NCBI GenBank assembly: GCA_021149145.1
Contig: GCA_021149145.1_4322.1
Length of the DNA stretch: 34,803 bases
Direction: 5' to 3' (one strand)
DNA from: a phage
A model generated the notes under the pieces. The model was not told the origin of the DNA. It worked only from the letters and a program-made list of their open reading frames with translations, and ran no database searches. Within the stretch, counting starts at the first letter, position 1. Every line of letters starts with the position of its first letter. Positions 10,118-30,518 of this stretch are shown in pieces. A program made the translations under genes and the position numbers.

Positions 10118-10193
10118 TGGTGTTCCGCACTGGACTCGAACCAGTAACTAAGACTTAGGAGGTCTTTGCGTTATCCTGTTACGCCAGCAGAAC
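10118..10193 (-). tRNA. tRNA-Arg (anticodon CCU)
   Basis: 76-nt cloverleaf folded by hand: acceptor GTTCTGC/GCGGAAC (one G-U), D-arm GCGT-AACAGGATA-ACGC, anticodon arm AAGAC-CUCCUAA-GTCTT, T-arm ACTGG-TTCGAGT-CCAGT, discriminator A, encoded CCA. Confidence 0.8.
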
Positions 10194-22823: not shown

Positions 22824-24533
22824 TCAATCCTCCATCGTAAATGATTTGTTGGCGATAATATCTTGAGACTTCTGGTTTTTACGGTGTGTGATTCTCAATG
22901 GGGCACGGAATAGATGTGCATTTGTCATAATCATTCTAGCATTACGCAATCTGCCAATTCTGAATGCCTCATTCCTGTTATCGATGTGTGTTGAGCAGAA
23001 AGCCTTCCATTTAACAGAGCAAACGCGATGGTCTGATTCAGGGAAGAATGTTTCATAAGCTCGGAATCTGTCACCACTGTGAGCCATAACCTCATATGAA
23101 GCAATAATCCCTGACTGGTTCTTTGTTAACCCAATCTTGAAGTCATAAACTCGCAACCAGTCCCCCTTACGATACATTTTTCCTGATAACTTAGCATTCG
23201 GGTCTATGAGCATCTCACCACAGCATCTGCAATTCTTAGCTGCAATATCATTCTTCTCACCGCATCCTTTCTTGATGATAGCTTTGGTCTGTGGGTCCGC
23301 CATATCTTCACACAGTATAAACTGAAAGAAGTGCTCGCAACGCTTACCGTCAATTACATTATTACAACGCCGTGCGAACGGAGAGTTCTCATAAGAACAT
23401 GCCGGGCATACCCTAGGTTCATCACCTCCTTTCCTTGATGACTTAAACTTCTGGTCCTGAACTTCTTCTATAATTGGGTCAAAGTAAAGCTCTGCCATAT
23501 CGTCAAGCGTTCCGGCGAAATCGAGAACAACATGGTCTTCTTTTACCATCCCTGAATCCTTGTGTTTTTTCTTAAGAATTCGCATACCACGACCAAGCAA
23601 CTGAATGAGTAGAGTAATGCTACCAACCTTCCTCAGGATAATGCTTGTATCCCACGGGGGGCAGTTTACGCCAGTTGTGAGGCAACCAATCTGAAATATG
23701 AACTTATATTCTCCGTTGGCTGCCTTCTCAAGTATCTCTCTACGCTTCTTCTCACCAGTGGAGTTGGTAACTATCGCCCAAGTAACACCTTCTGGAAGTG
23801 CGGCTGCCGCCTCCTCGCAATGCCGTTTGCCAGCGCAAGTTACCAATGCAGCATTCCTTGTTTCCATAAACTTAGCAGCAAATCTCATTATCTTTTGTGT
23901 CATCGTTTGGTTTTCGTGAATCTTTGCAGCCATCGCATCCATTTCTTTCTTGCTGAAGTCCTTAACCCCATCACTTCCATCAGGAGTGAACTCACTAAGG
24001 TCGTAGCCCAAATCACCAACTTCACCGTAGACAGTAGGAACAACGAACCCCAAGTCAACAAGGTAGCTGGTTGGCACTTGCATTACAGTTTTGCGCCAGA
24101 ATCCACGGACATTTGGGTTACTAACTACAATGTGGTCGTTGTTACGGTACGGGCTACCAGTTAACCCAAAGATACGAAGTTCGCGACCGTACTTCTCCCT
24201 GCATCGACGCTTCATTTCGGTAATGATTAACGTGTATTGCGCGCGACCAGTGCCAAGAAGCCCGGTATTCACACCATCCTTAAAGACCATCTCACCATTC
24301 TTCGTGCTCATCTGCTCGAATGTTTCCTCATTCTCTTCAGCTTCTACGATATCCATATGGTCCACCATGTGGCAATTATGTGCCACGACCCCGTCAGCAA
24401 TGAAATTATGGTGCTCAGGCATCTCTATATCCCAAACAAGTTCCTTGCCAATTGGTGAGATGTCTTTAATTTTGCTTGATTTTGTATTCCACGCCATTTT
24501 CCATGTGCTTACTAATTCTCTTAAAAAACTCAT
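22824..24533 (-). CDS. Helicase, C-terminal part: 53-aa intein C-terminal segment (blocks F/G) fused to C-extein
   Basis: Starts with ATG right after an in-frame stop; ...ELVWDIEMPEHHNFIADGVVAHN|CHMVDHMD...; C-extein carries helicase motif VI-like QLLGRGMR and a C-terminal Cys cluster. Confidence 0.7.
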   Translation of the reverse strand: MSFLRELVSTWKMAWNTKSSKIKDISPIGKELVWDIEMPEHHNFIADGVVAHNCHMVDHMDIVEAEENEETFEQMSTKNGEMVFKDGVNTGLLGTGRAQYTLIITEMKRRCREKYGRELRIFGLTGSPYRNNDHIVVSNPNVRGFWRKTVMQVPTSYLVDLGFVVPTVYGEVGDLGYDLSEFTPDGSDGVKDFSKKEMDAMAAKIHENQTMTQKIMRFAAKFMETRNAALVTCAGKRHCEEAAAALPEGVTWAIVTNSTGEKKRREILEKAANGEYKFIFQIGCLTTGVNCPPWDTSIILRKVGSITLLIQLLGRGMRILKKKHKDSGMVKEDHVVLDFAGTLDDMAELYFDPIIEEVQDQKFKSSRKGGDEPRVCPACSYENSPFARRCNNVIDGKRCEHFFQFILCEDMADPQTKAIIKKGCGEKNDIAAKNCRCCGEMLIDPNAKLSGKMYRKGDWLRVYDFKIGLTKNQSGIIASYEVMAHSGDRFRAYETFFPESDHRVCSVKWKAFCSTHIDNRNEAFRIGRLRNARMIMTNAHLFRAPLRITHRKNQKSQDIIANKSFTMED

Positions 24534-25514
24534 CTTGTGCCGACCTCGTTGTTATTGATACTGAGTAAAGCTCTCTCTTTTTCTTGCCGCCAATATAGCT
24601 TCTAACCTTAACTCCGTCATTAGCAATAAATGCTATTAGCGCATCAACTACTGATTGAACTTCACTCCTGCTAAATGATTCGGTGTGGATTTCTACAACC
24701 CTCTTCCCTGAGCTTACAGTGCAATGACCATCATCACCAAAGTAAGCAGCCCAACCAACTGGATCAAGCTCTCTGCATATCTTTCCAATATCGTAACCAT
24801 CCTTAGAATTTCCGTACTTATCAGCATATGAATCCAGAACTTTCGTACATGATGTTGATACGCAAAACCAGTTGTCGCCAAATCCAGGGTTTTTCTTCTC
24901 CCTGTATCTAGGGTTTAGTTTTGCAAACCTTTCAACCTTGCTTAGTGCGTGCTCCTTATTTCCAATATTCCAAGATAGCCTATGCGTTCCTTTTTCTGTA
25001 TTTTTAATCAAGCAACCATCACCAGCCATTGCCGCAAGAATGTTTTGATGTAAAAAGTCATCAACCTCCATTGATGGGTTGACGGTTGAATTATGATGCC
25101 CCGTTCTGTAATCCAAATAGAAATCGAAAGGGTTCTTAAGAAGTACGCCTAACCCCTTGCTTGAATGCGGCATAACTTTTTCACCACAGCCACACTTGCA
25201 CGCAGGAGCTTTTTCGTAAATTTGTCCTGCGAGCCGTCTAGCGACAGATTCATCCCAATACGAAGTTTTCCCGCTCCTACCCAGCAGCCGTTCGAATAAA
25301 GTTTGTGTGTACTCGTGCATTTTATTTCCTCTCCGCTTTCTAATTTAATTGATGATACATGTCTTACACCATTAGTAAAAACTCTTTTTGGCTTATGATA
25401 GAAGTAATCACCAGTGCTTTCGTTTATGCATTTTATTTTATGATTGATAAGGTCTTCGCTATCAATCCTCATCATCCCTGAATCGGTGGTTATCATCGTG
25501 TCTCCAGTTAAGCA
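24375..25514 (-). mobile_element. Intein (1140 nt, 380 codons) in helicase motif II, with LAGLIDADG endonuclease encoded in a shifted frame
   Basis: Block A CLTGDTMITT directly after ...VIAIDE; block B KCTSTHKLY; blocks F/G VWDIEMPEHHNFIADGVVAHN then C; joined exteins read DE-CH. The two splicing domains share one frame; the endonuclease ORF is in another. Confidence 0.75.
24466..25320 (-). CDS. LAGLIDADG homing endonuclease (intein-internal or free-standing)
   Basis: 284-codon ORF with its own ATG, two LAGLIDADG-like motifs (ILAAMAGDGCL, AAYFGDDGHC); overlaps the flanking ORFs by 172 and 68 nt. Confidence 0.65.
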   Translation of the reverse strand: MHEYTQTLFERLLGRSGKTSYWDESVARRLAGQIYEKAPACKCGCGEKVMPHSSKGLGVLLKNPFDFYLDYRTGHHNSTVNPSMEVDDFLHQNILAAMAGDGCLIKNTEKGTHRLSWNIGNKEHALSKVERFAKLNPRYREKKNPGFGDNWFCVSTSCTKVLDSYADKYGNSKDGYDIGKICRELDPVGWAAYFGDDGHCTVSSGKRVVEIHTESFSRSEVQSVVDALIAFIANDGVKVRSYIGGKKKRELYSVSITTRSAQDEFFKRISKHMENGVEYKIKQN

Positions 25515-25958
25515 CTCATCTATCGCGATAACAGCAGGAGCATAGTCACCAAGCCCCTTAAACAAGCCGTTAGCAGCCGTTCCCTCACTAGCCACTATGG
25601 TTGGATAGTAAACTGATTTAACGTTAAGGCCAGCGCAATAGACGCTATTACGGATGCCGAAATTACGAAGTTCCTCTGCGTTCTGGCTGACAATCTCTGA
25701 CTGGCGAGATAGGACCATGTAAGGAAGGCCAAGCTGTTCCATTCGTTTCCCAATCATGGCGAGAATAATCGTCTTGCCAGCCGAAACCGATAGGTCTGCT
25801 ATGAATGGCGCTTCGTACTTGCCAATAGCCTTTCCGATTGCGTCAAATGTCACGCACTGGAATGGGTATGGTGTGATTTCTCCGAACTGATAATCATTTT
25901 GAATCTGCTTGATTTTATCTTGGTCAAAGTTTGCTACTAAGCGTTCTACTGGAAGCAT
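25149..25958 (-). CDS. Helicase, N-terminal part: N-extein (148 aa, Walker A SVSAGKT, Walker B IAIDE) fused to 121-aa intein N-terminal segment
   Basis: ORF ends at TAG after intein blocks A and B; same frame as the C-terminal helicase ORF. Confidence 0.7.
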   Translation of the reverse strand: MLPVERLVANFDQDKIKQIQNDYQFGEITPYPFQCVTFDAIGKAIGKYEAPFIADLSVSAGKTIILAMIGKRMEQLGLPYMVLSRQSEIVSQNAEELRNFGIRNSVYCAGLNVKSVYYPTIVASEGTAANGLFKGLGDYAPAVIAIDECLTGDTMITTDSGMMRIDSEDLINHKIKCINESTGDYFYHKPKRVFTNGVRHVSSIKLESGEEIKCTSTHKLYSNGCWVGAGKLRIGMNLSLDGSQDKFTKKLLRASVAVVKKLCRIQARG

Positions 25959-26054: not shown

Positions 26055-26528
26055 ATGTGTAAAATTGACAAGCGAACTATTAACGGCAATAACGGGACCG
26101 TCCGCACGCAAGACAAGAAGCAACGCAAGCGACCTTCAGGCTACTACGTATTGAAAGATGAAGTAAAGGCTGGTCTACGCGCGCGTCTGGAAATGATTCT
26201 TGATTTCTACGGCACGAAAGCCAATATCGCCAAGCAGTTAAATGTATCTCACCAGACTGTAGAGCAATGGTTTAATCGCGGGATGATTTCGGCTCGAGGG
26301 GCTCAGAGAGCGCATAATGCGTACAAGCGAAATAAGGAAGGGTTCCGAGCTACATTCTGCCGACCAGACCTGCAATTCGACGGTAACGGAAAGCCGCTAA
26401 CACTTCGATGCAAGAAACGCCATATGCTTCGCGTAGTTACCGAGGCAGAACTAGCAATAAAACCACCCTGTCGACCGTGGCGCAAGAATAAGATTGCTAA
26501 CGAAGCAGCACGAAAAGCTAAAGGGTAA
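26055..26528 (+). CDS. Putative HTH DNA-binding protein (157 aa)
   Basis: Basic N-terminus; HTH-like segment TKANIAKQLNVSHQTVEQWFNRGMIS; first rightward gene from a divergent region. Confidence 0.45.
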   Translation: MCKIDKRTINGNNGTVRTQDKKQRKRPSGYYVLKDEVKAGLRARLEMILDFYGTKANIAKQLNVSHQTVEQWFNRGMISARGAQRAHNAYKRNKEGFRATFCRPDLQFDGNGKPLTLRCKKRHMLRVVTEAELAIKPPCRPWRKNKIANEAARKAKG

Positions 26529-26579
26529 GTGATTGGATGTGCCATAATAGGCACATCCTTTTTTATTGGAGAGAAGAAA

Positions 26580-27059
26580 ATGAACTGGCATGATTATTTT
26601 TACTATGTAGATGGCAAATTGCATTGGAAGATTAGCACTGCAAGACGTGTTAAGGTTGGCGATGAGTGCAACTCACTATCTACATCTGGCTATTACAAAG
26701 TGTCTGTTAATGGCTTTAGGACTTATGTACATAGAGTTGTGTGGGAGATGTTTAATGGATAACTTCAAAATGGCGACTACATTGATCATATAAACCATAA
26801 CAAATTAGATAACAGAATAGAAAACCTAAGAGTAACAACAAATCAAGGTAACTCAAGAAATTGCAAGCTTAGCGTTTTATCAACAACTGGTTATTGTGGA
26901 GTGGCAAAGCTAAATCACGGAAAATTTAAGGCTCACATCACGGTTGACGGCAAGCAGCTACACCTTGGTAACTTCGATACTCCAGAACGGGCGTATAAAG
27001 TAAGAATTGAAGCAGAGAGAAAATACAACTTTCACGAAAATAACGGGTTAAGCAAATGA
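26580..27059 (+). pseudogene. HNH-AP2-type homing endonuclease interrupted by an in-frame TAA (26760-26762)
   Basis: GGAGAGAAG RBS; MNWHDYFYYVDGKLHWK...HRVVWEMFNG, TAA, then same frame LQNGDYIDHINHNKLDNRIENLRVTTNQGNSRN (HNH) and an AP2-like tail; stop overlaps primase ATG (ATGA). Confidence 0.6.
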
Positions 27060-27979
27060 ATTACGATAAGAATGAAGTTATACCTAAGATGGCCGGATTG
27101 TGGAAATCATTTTATGTAAAGGAACTTGGTTGGAATGATAGACACATAAGTAAGAAGCACGGACCATGCCCATGCTGCTTTGGCACTGACAGATTCAGAT
27201 TTACCGACGAAATAGGCAGTGAAAAAGGAAATGGCGCGGCAGTTTGTTCGAAATGCGGAAGTGACTCCGGTATAGGATGGGTCATGAAGTGCACCGGATT
27301 GTCCTTCGCCGATTCAGTAAATTTGCTTGGTGACTGGCTGAACTTAACACCAATTGAGGTTATAGTTAAAGCAAACAAGCAAGCCTCGAGAACTAAGCGT
27401 TACAAAATGGGCGCTCAAGTCGACCATGAGAAAGTCCTGGAGGTTATGGAGAGAACTAAGAGAGTGGAATCGAGTCCACTCACGACATACGAGGGTATTT
27501 ATGACGCGTTTGGTTTTGATGTTGGTATAGCTAAAAATGGTTCAATGATTCACGCAATCCCTTGTTCGATGGTTTATGAAGATGGGCTTAGTGATGAGTT
27601 CTGTAACGTAATGTTTATCGATGAGGATTCAAATGTTAAGTTCCTTGCTGGTGATTACACTCGTGATTCTGTTTCCGTTATTGGTTCTAAGCAGGATGAT
27701 AGTTATACTTATGTTGTTGACAATTATATTGATGGCATGCGTGTTCACCTTGCTACTGGTGGGCGCGAAGTGTTTGTTGCTTTCTCCTGTTACAATATGG
27801 AGATGGTTATCCACCGCGACAAGTCAAGGAAGTTCAGAATTGCTTGCCGTGATTCTGATAGCGATATACTCGCCGTTGCTGACGATAGGGGTGTTGATGT
27901 TGTAGTTCCTAATGACGGTGAGTCATTTAAAACAGGCATACGAAAGAAAGTGTACAAAGCAAACGACTTGCTAAACTAG
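27056..27979 (+). CDS. DNA primase (zinc ribbon plus TOPRIM-like region)
   Basis: 307 aa; N-terminal Cys4 ribbon GPCPCCFGTDRFRF...AVCSKCG typical of primase zinc-binding domains; acidic DxD-like clusters later (CRDSDSDILAVADDRG). Confidence 0.55.
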   Translation: MNYDKNEVIPKMAGLWKSFYVKELGWNDRHISKKHGPCPCCFGTDRFRFTDEIGSEKGNGAAVCSKCGSDSGIGWVMKCTGLSFADSVNLLGDWLNLTPIEVIVKANKQASRTKRYKMGAQVDHEKVLEVMERTKRVESSPLTTYEGIYDAFGFDVGIAKNGSMIHAIPCSMVYEDGLSDEFCNVMFIDEDSNVKFLAGDYTRDSVSVIGSKQDDSYTYVVDNYIDGMRVHLATGGREVFVAFSCYNMEMVIHRDKSRKFRIACRDSDSDILAVADDRGVDVVVPNDGESFKTGIRKKVYKANDLLN

Positions 27980-28064: not shown

Positions 28065-30518
28065 ATGGCAATTTATGACTTAGGAACAGCATCGCTAGCC
28101 TCAAATGGCGAGGTTACTGGCGTAGGTACTACATGGAAAGCACCTCTTACACTGATTCGTGTAGGTGCTACTATCATTTTCAAAACCAGCCCTCTGAAAA
28201 TTTACACCATCTCTGAAATCATCAGCGATACTCAGGTTAATGTTTATAATCCAAGTTCTGAAACTGTTCCCGCTGGTACTGGTTACGCAATTCTTGCTCA
28301 TGATGGAATTACTGTTCAGGGGTTGGCGCAGGATGTTGCGGAAACATTGCGTTACTACCAGTCAAAAGAGACTTCTATTGAAAGTCTACTGCAATTTATT
28401 GGTCAAGATACTTTTGATTGGCCTCGTCTTGAACAACTGGCAACTCAGTCAACTACCGGAGCTGCCGAGGCGCTTGCTAGTCAGATCTCTGCCGCTGAGA
28501 GTGCCTCTACAGCGGTAGGTGCTAGCAATAACGCACAAAATTCATATAACAGGACGGTTGCAGCAATAAATGCGGCTGGAAATACAGCGGCTGTTGCTTA
28601 CTTTGCTGATCACGGAATAGGTAGCACGACAACGCCATTTCTTACCTCTTTAGATTGGCAAACAATGCAATTTTGTTCCGGAGGTCGTTATCAGTGCACA
28701 CTTAGGGATATGTTAAACACCCCAAAAGAAATTAGTTCAATGTTTCCGGTTTCAACAACTCCTATTTGTATTGATGTTATTGCAACTAGGGGTGTTAATT
28801 CGGCTAGTGTATTAAGGTTATCTCCGTCTACTGGGTCAAACTCAAATTTTAGGATTGCAGATGTCACAATTTCTGGTGCGACTGGATCTAGGGTTTTTTA
28901 TGTAAGGGAAGCACTAAGCTTGCCTGGCGGTGATGCTGCAACTGGTGGAGCAAGCGCGTCAAGGGTTAGGGGGTTGCTTGATGTTTACTCAAAGGGTGAG
29001 GTGTTATCAATTTTAAATACAGATTCAAAAAAAAGCACATCAAGCTATGGCGGCTCAATATCTTCAGCAATAGAAACCGCTGGCGATGGCGGGTCGGTAG
29101 TTATAGGCCCGGGAACTTATGAGAGTAATAACTACTCCTTTGCTGGCAGGAACATATCAGGCTCTGGATATAATACCGTAATAAGTGTTAAACCTTTTGA
29201 AACCGGACTCACATCAACGCTATCGGTTCCGCACTGGAGGCAAAAGCATTTATCGGATTTGCAGTTTACAGGTACTGCAATACAAGGTAATAACGGCTTT
29301 CAATTCCCGGATGACCCTTATGCTGGAAGGGTTGTATTGGATAGGCTTTACTTCAATGACCTGGATGTTGGTATAAGGAAAAATGCTGGCAACATTGGAA
29401 ATACCTACAGAAACGTAAGTGTTAGAAATGCGAATTACGGGTATAGAGCAAAAGCTCATGACAAAATGCATATAGGATCGGACACTTTATACGGATACCA
29501 CTCAGATACAATCTCTCAATATTCAGTAATGCTAGATGCGACAAGCACAAGTAGCGCAACGAACCATGGCGCTGGAGGAATTGGTGGGTGGTGGATTAGG
29601 GATTCAATAATGGAGGACTCTGCTGGCGGCGGTATAAGGTTAAAGAATAAACCTGGAGATTGCCCAACATCACCTTGCGGATTGTCTAACGTATGGTTTG
29701 AAGCGATAGCAACTGGGGGAGCAGTTAACGTAGGTGAGGGAGCTGAACTCCCAAGGGTTTTGAAGCTCATCGATACGTCCGTTTTCTTTGCTGAGCATTC
29801 TTATATTAATAACATTGAGTTATCAAATTCAAACCTTGTAACTTATGGGTGCAGGTTTGATAACGCTGATGGGCGCCAAAGTTTCTCTCTTGATTCGAAC
29901 AGTATTATTTTTGCTAAGGATGCATACCTGAATGGATCTTCAACATCAAACGTTATAGTTGAGTCGCTGGTATCACAGACAGCCAAGATAACGGGTACAT
30001 CTGACTTATCTGTTAGAGGATATGTTACTAAAGGTCGAGTTTTTAATCCAGATTCCGGAACTGTTTTAGTCAGGAGGCCTTTTGGTACTGGTGGGAGCAA
30101 CTTTGGTGGAACAGCGTCGGCAAGTGAAGGTCCTGATACAAGGGGTATACACTCGCTATCATCTGGATACTACGAATTGCTTGGTGCGGCTCAGTACGAA
30201 TTGATAAATGGTGCCTTTAATATAACCGCTGGCAAATGGTATGTTTGGGGTATCTCTGCAAACAGAATTCAAGGTGGTGCTGATGGTGTTATCCGTATTT
30301 TTGGTAGAGCATCTTTAGGGCAGGTATTCACTGAGGGCGGTAAGTGGGTTCACACATTTGGAGTTGCTCAGGCTTCAGTCTCTGGCACTGCAAACCTGCA
30401 TATCAACCTTAATGGGCTACCTGGTATGGCATTAAGTCTTGCTGATTACTTCGTTGTAGAGTTCGATAACCAAAGAGACGCTTTAATATTTGCCAACTCA
30501 AGGATGGCGCTTCAATAA
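28065..30518 (+). CDS. Tailspike / tail fibre protein with probable beta-helix (depolymerase-like) domain
   Basis: 817 aa, GGAGA RBS; Gly/Ser/Thr/Asn-rich repetitive central region of the kind seen in right-handed beta-helix tailspikes; flanked by terminators. Confidence 0.55.
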   Translation: MAIYDLGTASLASNGEVTGVGTTWKAPLTLIRVGATIIFKTSPLKIYTISEIISDTQVNVYNPSSETVPAGTGYAILAHDGITVQGLAQDVAETLRYYQSKETSIESLLQFIGQDTFDWPRLEQLATQSTTGAAEALASQISAAESASTAVGASNNAQNSYNRTVAAINAAGNTAAVAYFADHGIGSTTTPFLTSLDWQTMQFCSGGRYQCTLRDMLNTPKEISSMFPVSTTPICIDVIATRGVNSASVLRLSPSTGSNSNFRIADVTISGATGSRVFYVREALSLPGGDAATGGASASRVRGLLDVYSKGEVLSILNTDSKKSTSSYGGSISSAIETAGDGGSVVIGPGTYESNNYSFAGRNISGSGYNTVISVKPFETGLTSTLSVPHWRQKHLSDLQFTGTAIQGNNGFQFPDDPYAGRVVLDRLYFNDLDVGIRKNAGNIGNTYRNVSVRNANYGYRAKAHDKMHIGSDTLYGYHSDTISQYSVMLDATSTSSATNHGAGGIGGWWIRDSIMEDSAGGGIRLKNKPGDCPTSPCGLSNVWFEAIATGGAVNVGEGAELPRVLKLIDTSVFFAEHSYINNIELSNSNLVTYGCRFDNADGRQSFSLDSNSIIFAKDAYLNGSSTSNVIVESLVSQTAKITGTSDLSVRGYVTKGRVFNPDSGTVLVRRPFGTGGSNFGGTASASEGPDTRGIHSLSSGYYELLGAAQYELINGAFNITAGKWYVWGISANRIQGGADGVIRIFGRASLGQVFTEGGKWVHTFGVAQASVSGTANLHINLNGLPGMALSLADYFVVEFDNQRDALIFANSRMALQ

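Follow-up and report, generated by a model that had tools for sequence, protein, structure and literature searches.

In the Vibrio phage ICP1, homing endonucleases composed of an HNH nuclease and an AP2 domain have been described and were found to be enriched at the boundaries of genetic exchange (Barth et al., 2023; PMC10448857). The same architecture occurs in phages, cyanobacteria and protists, as reported in earlier work cited in that study, and one of the ICP1 endonucleases (gp115-gp116) is split into two ORFs by a frameshift (PMC10448857). Intronless homing was shown experimentally for SegF, SegG and SegE of phage T4, as cited in the same paper. These are GIY-YIG nucleases for which both cleavage and marker exclusion were demonstrated by experiment. 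A third related system is I-HmuI (PDB 1u3e) of the Bacillus phage SPO1, a group I intron-encoded enzyme that nicks a single strand and whose C-terminal DNA-binding modules are of the helical/HTH type in place of AP2.

A gene of this general type was examined in a contig of 34,803 nucleotides of phage DNA (GCA_021149145.1_4322.1; hereafter, the window). Based on the evidence presented below, it is highly probable that the locus corresponds to a decaying free-standing HNH-AP2 homing endonuclease gene, flanked by the terminator of a regulator gene on one side and the primase start on the other in a T1/Rtp-like coliphage. The features of the locus are as follows.

26055..26528 (+): HTH transcriptional regulator, the upstream neighbour, orthologue of Rtp rtp52 and T1 gp23
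26535..26567 (+): intrinsic-terminator-like hairpin, GGATGTGCC-ATAATA-GGCACATCC, plus a T-run, 3' of the regulator gene (terminator scan)
26568..26579 (+): ribosome-binding region belonging to the endonuclease gene, GGAGAGAAGAAA, immediately 5' of the ATG (sequence)
26580..27059 (+): free-standing HNH(HNH_3)-AP2 homing endonuclease pseudogene, 160 codons, one internal stop
26580..26762 (+): residual 60-aa ORF, N-terminal beta-sheet region plus one helix, without catalytic residues (model of an orthologue)
26760..26762 (+): inactivating codon, TAA for GAA/GAG (Glu61), a single G>T at 26760 (DNA alignment, substitution table)
26781..27059 (+): 92-aa post-stop fragment with an ATT start at 26781, 'HNH endonuclease' of the NCBI pipeline (HBM2295317.1)
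27056..27979 (+): DNA primase gene, 307 aa, zinc ribbon at residues 33-73 (Pfam Zn_Ribbon_Prim, E=2e-09)
27056..27393 (+): primase 5' segment co-inherited with the endonuclease gene, a putative co-conversion tract (sliding identity, polymorphic-site list)

The ATG at 26580 (+ strand) begins a frame of 160 codons that ends with TGA at 27057-27059 and contains a sole internal stop, the TAA at 26760-26762, which is codon 61. The frame translates as MNWHDYFYYVDGKLHWK...HRVVWEMFNG, TAA, and then LQNGDYIDHINHNKLDNRIENLRVTTNQGN...NGLSK, TGA. The peptide strings quoted in the original prediction coincide exactly with this translation, and its description of one endonuclease-like frame with an in-frame TAA was borne out by the sequence and the reading of the ORFs, as was the overlap of the endonuclease stop with the primase start (TGA 27057-27059 and ATG 27056-27058, a 4-nt overlap, ATGA). 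If translation starts canonically at the ATG of the gene, the 60-aa ORF is the sole expected product, and an identical ORF was called in a Logan assembly. Upstream, the regulator ORF (26055..26528) gave weak Pfam HTH matches, each under its own cut-off, and is annotated as a regulator in the relatives; this gene is part of the phage backbone and lies outside the mobile cassette. The hairpin at 26535..26567 is common to genomes that lack the endonuclease (for example AN_ECEAS, with an empty site) and represents the left border of the insertion, and the region 26568..26579, with an anti-Shine-Dalgarno duplex energy of -6.4 kcal/mol, is absent from the empty-site alleles. Downstream, the primase of the window is an exact match to the NCBI protein HBM2295318.1.

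When codon 61 is read as Glu, the repaired protein matches Pfam HNH_3 (PF13392) over residues 49-93 with E=3.7e-18 and 65.3 bits (cut-off 24.8). This match is far beyond chance and the frame is not a chance open frame. Taken separately, the N-terminal 60 residues match HNH_3 profile positions 2-13 and the C-terminal 98 residues positions 21-46; because the two halves match complementary parts of one profile, the stop splits a single domain. Database searches recovered one tight cluster (68 member sequences, from 37 contigs). Numerous more distant relatives, at 35-48% identity, were also found, and for several of these both HNH_3 and AP2 domains are precomputed. In a family alignment of 22 homologous sequences, also used as a profile, H51, G60, D69, H70, R79, N82, N91 and N94 were invariant and position 61 was variable. 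The residues D69, H70, N82, N91 and N94 of the beta-beta-alpha-metal core are all encoded in the frame of the window. HNH_3 was matched by the 22 homologues and AP2 (PF00847) by 14 of them, with 4.4e-09 as the best value.

Compared with solved structures, the profile of the 22 homologues matched I-HmuI (1u3e; 2.9e-08, residues 27-132) and the plant AP2/ERF proteins WRI1 (5e-10), TEM1, ERF096 and AtERF1. The AlphaFold model was made for the intact TR1 orthologue, which is 97% identical to the window's protein (pLDDT 85), and it comprises an N-terminal sheet, a beta-beta-alpha core at residues 66-94 (strands 66-70 and 83-87, helix 88-94), a disordered linker (95-99) and a C-terminal domain at 108-148 formed by three strands (108-110, 116-122, 125-132) and a helix (135-148). 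A Foldseek search with this model gave I-HmuI as the top match (probability 1.00), followed by AP2 domains, and superposition of the model on AP2 domains gave 0.8 A for TEM1 (45 columns) and 1.6 A for AtERF1. Searched against Pfam AP2, neither the C-terminal 68 nor the N-terminal 54 residues of the window's own sequence gave a match at E<=10. Therefore, regarding the proposal of an HNH core followed by an AP2-like tail, the first part was confirmed on the sequence of the window itself, whereas the second was recovered through the homologues, the profile and the model and not by a Pfam match of its own; the assignment of the putative AP2 domain is supported indirectly, by family profiles and a structure model rather than by the single sequence of the window. 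A tblastn search with the repaired protein found no paralogues of the gene within the window. A 131-aa ENA protein (P0002), 77% identical over the C-terminal part, was set aside for its unrelated N-terminus and its location on a 758-nt contig; it joins the unrelated segment to endonuclease residues ~78-159 and probably derives from a chimeric or fragmentary metagenome contig.

The comparison with the described systems shows both likenesses and differences. I-HmuI, the best match among solved structures by profile and by fold, shares with this family the N-terminal sheet and the beta-beta-alpha-metal core, with an identity of only 19%, but differs in its intron location and in its C-terminal modules. 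The 'IPA-HNH' genes of ICP1 resemble the gene of the window in having an N-terminal HNH nuclease and a C-terminal AP2 domain, in being free-standing and in including an inactivated copy. However, the HNH domains of ICP1 are atypical and are not found by the Pfam HNH_3 profile, while the gene studied here is a canonical HNH_3 member, and inactivation occurred by a frameshift in ICP1 and by a nonsense codon in this case. With the Seg genes of T4 the locus has in common a free-standing nuclease gene between conserved genes and the co-inheritance of adjacent sequence (here, the island at 26559-27393 described below); unlike those GIY-YIG enzymes, this HNH-AP2 endonuclease is known from sequence.

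The region is 80-94% identical to that of Escherichia phages of the Drexlerviridae, Braunvirinae (Rtp/T1-like). An intact gene of 159 aa (480 nt) is present at the same junction in seven phages, annotated as 'HNH endonuclease' or 'putative homing endonuclease': phiA2-1 (GP34), TR1 (UVD31762.1), IME542 (QAU04374.1), DTL (ATW61831.1, ORF60 in the publication of the DTL genome, PMC5816109), RobRod40, AugustePiccard/Bas01 (bas01_0040) and CEB_EC3a (Ec3a_47). These orthologues share with the window gene the position between regulator and primase, the 480-nt length and the ATGA overlap, and their nucleotide identity with it is 97.9-98.5%. According to the DNA alignment, codon 61 is GAA or GAG in all seven, which are complete, and TAA in the window. 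The view that the two halves belong to one gene was thus confirmed, as the seven phage orthologues are single 159-aa ORFs with Glu at the position of the TAA, and no independent orthologues of either half were found, save for the mutated alleles and the 92-aa fragment called by the pipeline.

The TAA is located inside the HNH_3 domain, upstream of the invariant Asp69-His70, Asn82 and Asn91, and the nuclease ORF of the window is therefore interrupted at codon 61, before all the catalytic residues. Because the stop precedes these residues the 60-aa product cannot be a nuclease, and the AP2 domain is lost as well. The window copy is a pseudogene of the HNH_3 family and not a working member: it has a premature stop in comparison with its orthologues, the stop is reproduced in other assemblies, no recoding machinery was found and a second null allele (W16*) exists. 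Relative to the consensus, the window copy has five further private substitutions (K121T, Q137R, H155N and two silent changes), all of them 3' of the stop. Their placement is suggestive of drift after inactivation but does not reach significance (about p=0.09, assuming a uniform expectation). A relaxation of selection past the stop was considered on the same grounds and not retained, since five of five private changes are numbers too small and the changes in the intact lineages are also mostly non-synonymous (9/13).

The reality of the stop was evaluated by comparison with assemblies of other samples. The 480-nt gene, with the TAA included, is identical to that of the window in a contig of 45,885 nt (GCA_021146325.1; L012) and in a Logan assembly of run DRR314303 (L013), and public data from beyond the window also contain exact copies of the 60-aa ORF and of the 92-aa fragment. 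Since L012 and L013 do not differ from each other across 5982 nt and may come from a single sample, the TAA is considered as documented in at least two phage genotypes and not in three. The window differs from both at 25 positions in the surrounding 5.2 kb. The same allele was thus recovered by two assemblers in two distinguishable genotypes, therefore the TAA is inherited, and no sense codon was found at 26760 in these assemblies, in agreement with the in-frame stop originally reported. A third contig, of 45,624 nt (GCA_033193195.1; L014), is 96.8% identical to the window over the region and keeps Glu61, but its codon 16 is changed from TGG to TGA (W16*). The other copies with more than 95% identity (the seven phages and an IMG/VR contig, L016) align over the full 159 residues. 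The presence of two separate nonsense mutations in one small clade fits the ordinary decay of homing endonucleases once empty targets are gone.

With respect to mobility, the junction is empty in at least four phages (CY1, Rao1, AN_ECEAS and Rtp), in which the terminator of the regulator is followed by the primase start after 20-40 nt. The gene is present at this one locus in the seven phages, the window, L012/L013, L014 and L016, and when the relatives were checked for an intact or an absent endonuclease at the junction, both situations were found. Even one genus, Christensenvirus, includes both carriers (TR1 and IME542) and a phage without the gene (CY1). Compared with ES and AN_ECEAS, the closest relatives of the upstream backbone, homology ends at 26567, just past the T-run of the terminator, and resumes at ~27326. 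Copies with more than 95% identity were found in only 10 of the 3203 phage records that contain a family member.

Among the endonuclease-carrying phages, the mean pairwise identity is 98.8% for the endonuclease gene (range 98-100%), only 83.8% for the regulator (79-90%) and 85.8% for the primase (77-100%). A 50-nt sliding comparison of nine endonuclease-carrying genomes delimited an island of 97-100% identity from ~26559 to ~27393, with sharp bounds and ~80% identity on either side; from 27394 polymorphic sites become abruptly more frequent. The island takes in the first ~340 nt of the primase gene, including the zinc-ribbon codons. This primase segment (27056..27393) is 95-100% identical among the endonuclease carriers, and within it, at 27056-27295, the alleles of endonuclease-free phages are only 38-78% identical to the window. 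The identity island has the appearance of a signature of recent homing with co-conversion, and the primase 5' segment (27056..27393) would be the likely location of the cleavage target in endonuclease-free genomes. Taken together, the single gene, its presence or absence at one site, its conservation in comparison with the flanks and the second nonsense allele W16* substantiate the original prediction of a decaying homing endonuclease lodged beside a replication gene.

The ribosome-binding region and the first ~36 nt of the gene (26571-26615) also match the Klebsiella phages KlebP_265, SCNJ1-C and DP01 at 91-95%. In these phages the matches are found at homing-endonuclease or hypothetical genes adjoining a DNA repair helicase, which suggests that paralogous endonuclease genes at other loci may share a conserved 5' end.

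A search of complete E. coli genomes with the segment 26560-27400 gave no match; among those genomes the element is neither a prophage nor a plasmid feature. The window itself belongs to a third-party NCBI assembly of an 'Escherichia coli' isolate, and at least two further assemblies of this kind contain near-identical contigs of virulent T1/Rtp-like phages. Some of the relatives have fermentation sources, including TR1 and CY1 (fermentation broth) and DTL (industrial fermentation; PMC5816109). These observations suggest that the sequenced cultures were contaminated with phage or carried it, rather than that a prophage was present.

Other variable features were observed in the vicinity of the endonuclease locus. 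An SF2 helicase is encoded at 22824-25958 (-) in three ORFs (25149-25958, 24466-25320 and 22824-24533), and the corresponding gene is a single one of 1995 nt in Rtp, TR1 and DTL. The N-terminal part of the helicase ends in ...AIDE/CLTGDTMITT..., where the residues after the slash belong to a match to positions 17-78 of the Pfam Intein_splicing profile, and the C-terminal part starts with an intein C-half, ...ADGVVAHN/CH..., that matches profile positions 119-155. Both intein-half matches are below the cut-off of Pfam, and the junction of the two parts would restore a DECH motif. Between the helicase parts, and overlapping both, there is a 284-aa LAGLIDADG_2 ORF in another frame. The split helicase resembles a 'fractured gene' with a split intein, and trans-splicing is putative. 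In the study of Dassa et al. (2009; PMC2677866) the intervening endonucleases are of the GIY-YIG or Vsr-like type, and the word LAGLIDADG is absent from its main text. The split arrangement is also found in the cultured phages ES and AN_ECEAS (96.6% identity). A 1-nt deletion in L012 at window position 24991 would put the LAGLIDADG ORF out of frame, and neither L012 nor L013 has this ORF among those called; in L014 (753-1226) a LAGLIDADG ORF of only 157 aa was called, compared with 284 aa in the window. This second putative mobile endonuclease appears to be decaying in the relatives too. On the other side of the locus, the alignments of L012, L013 and L014 with the tail fibre gene (28065-30518) break and overlap at 28977-28993, with ~67 unaligned bases in those contigs, and a 3-nt indel is present at 29027-29029, evidencing local length variation between phages that are otherwise 99.5% identical.

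Several readings other than the simple decay of an inherited allele were weighed. The TAA might be an error of sequencing or assembly and the gene intact in the real phage, a reading that takes its plausibility from the nature of the data, since consensus assemblies are compared and a single-base difference from seven relatives is an error-like change. Nevertheless, the identical TAA is present in GCA_021146325.1 and in the assembly of DRR314303, which was made with different software, the 25 flanking differences that separate L012/L013 from the window indicate that the same consensus was not sampled twice, and position 26760 is outside any homopolymer; thus, an error as the source of the TAA is very unlikely. 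The original prediction had offered, alternatively, an ochre-suppressed gene. In a broader form, some full-length endonuclease could be made through an ochre-suppressing host or tRNA or through leakiness of the UAA-C context. The frame past the stop is wholly open, the allele is only 5 substitutions from the consensus, and termination in E. coli is comparatively weak when a C follows the stop codon, all of which speak for read-through. On the other hand, natural read-through of UAA in E. coli is very low, and no suppressor tRNA was found in the window, where the sole tRNA gene encodes tRNA-Arg (anticodon CCT; 10118-10193, - strand). TAA is also the commonest stop of the long frames of the window, ending 19 of the 42 of at least 120 codons, so it is read as a stop in this phage. 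Moreover, the relatives encode Glu at codon 61, where the stop occurs in no orthologue except the same allele, and in a sister genome a TGA at a different codon disables the gene, a point in favour of simple loss of function. The suppression alternative is accordingly not supported, and read-through in any of these forms is very improbable.

The truncation might instead be adaptive, either because the 60-aa product or a re-initiated C-terminal fragment is kept as a DNA-binding regulator or inhibitor, or because silencing of the nuclease was selected. Both genomes of the split-helicase sub-clade carry null alleles produced by different mutations, the 92-aa fragment was called as a protein by the NCBI pipeline, and DNA-binding domains of homing endonucleases are reused as repressors elsewhere (PMC10448857). 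Yet no obvious ribosome-binding site precedes the ATT at 26781, and at GTG 26901, the first canonical in-frame start after the TAA (52-aa product), a GGAG abuts the codon without spacing. Re-initiation in frame after the TAA was therefore regarded as unlikely, the more so as the nearest ATG (26770) is out of frame and opens an ORF of only 7 codons. Different fragments remain from the two null alleles (15 aa vs 60 aa), so no common product is preserved, the fragments are without independent orthologues and two events are too few to show selection; retention of a useful fragment, or selection of the silenced state, is then so improbable that we give it almost no weight. A related proposal is that the loss of the nuclease was selected or regulated and not neutral, because the enzyme was harmful on this backbone or because low UAA read-through keeps a throttled mobile endonuclease, with the stop modulating primase translation; this would be a faint prospect. 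The ATGA overlap suggests translational coupling, which the stop would break, and yet the lineage propagates. The Shine-Dalgarno match of the primase is -3.2 kcal/mol in the endonuclease carriers, -6.4 in CY1, -7.1 in AN_ECEAS and -2.9 in Rtp. The possibility that the primase depends on coupling to the endonuclease ORF was dropped because the match in Rtp, with an empty site, is equally weak (-2.9 vs -3.2).

The preferred explanation is consequently the decay of a free-standing HNH-AP2 homing endonuclease gene, for which the following mechanism can be hypothesized. During mixed infection, the intact enzyme would cut the 5' region of the primase gene in endonuclease-free phages, and repair from the endonuclease-carrying genome would copy the gene together with ~340 nt of adjoining, resistant primase sequence, that is, 'intronless homing' with co-conversion. 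In the genome of the window, a single G>T at 26760 changed Glu61 (GAA) to TAA, so that translation ends after 60 residues. With the beta-beta-alpha-metal core (Asp69-His70, Asn82, Asn91) and the AP2 domain lost, the gene is a recent pseudogene, a state that corresponds to decay in the homing cycle. The cleavage activity and its target site, homing and the lack of function of the fragments are inferred here from patterns in the sequences, and the literature search found no published test of cleavage or biased inheritance for this gene.

The locus is a feature of a known kind, as HNH-AP2 homing endonucleases are an established class and the intact orthologue was already in GenBank. The present analysis adds the recognition of the window copy as a null allele produced by the G>T at 26760; it also defines how far the co-converted island extends and reports a second null allele. 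In the databases, the W16* allele is annotated as a 103-aa protein starting at Met57 and the product of the TAA allele as a 92-aa protein with an ATT start (HBM2295317.1/HBM2054250.1); both annotations are probably artefacts that hide pseudogenes, and the 92-aa fragment is most likely not made as a protein. A suitable label for the locus is a single HNH-AP2 homing-endonuclease pseudogene, and not a 92-aa protein with an ATT start or two small ORFs, and beyond this correct annotation the finding has little importance. Still, phages with the intact gene (DTL, Bas01) and phages with an empty site (Rtp, CY1) are available in culture on E. coli, which makes homing and its inferred target in the primase gene easily testable, and all stages of the homing cycle can be recognized in one small group of phages: empty sites, a freshly spread intact gene with a sharply bounded co-conversion tract that reaches into the zinc-ribbon region of the primase, and two independent nonsense alleles.
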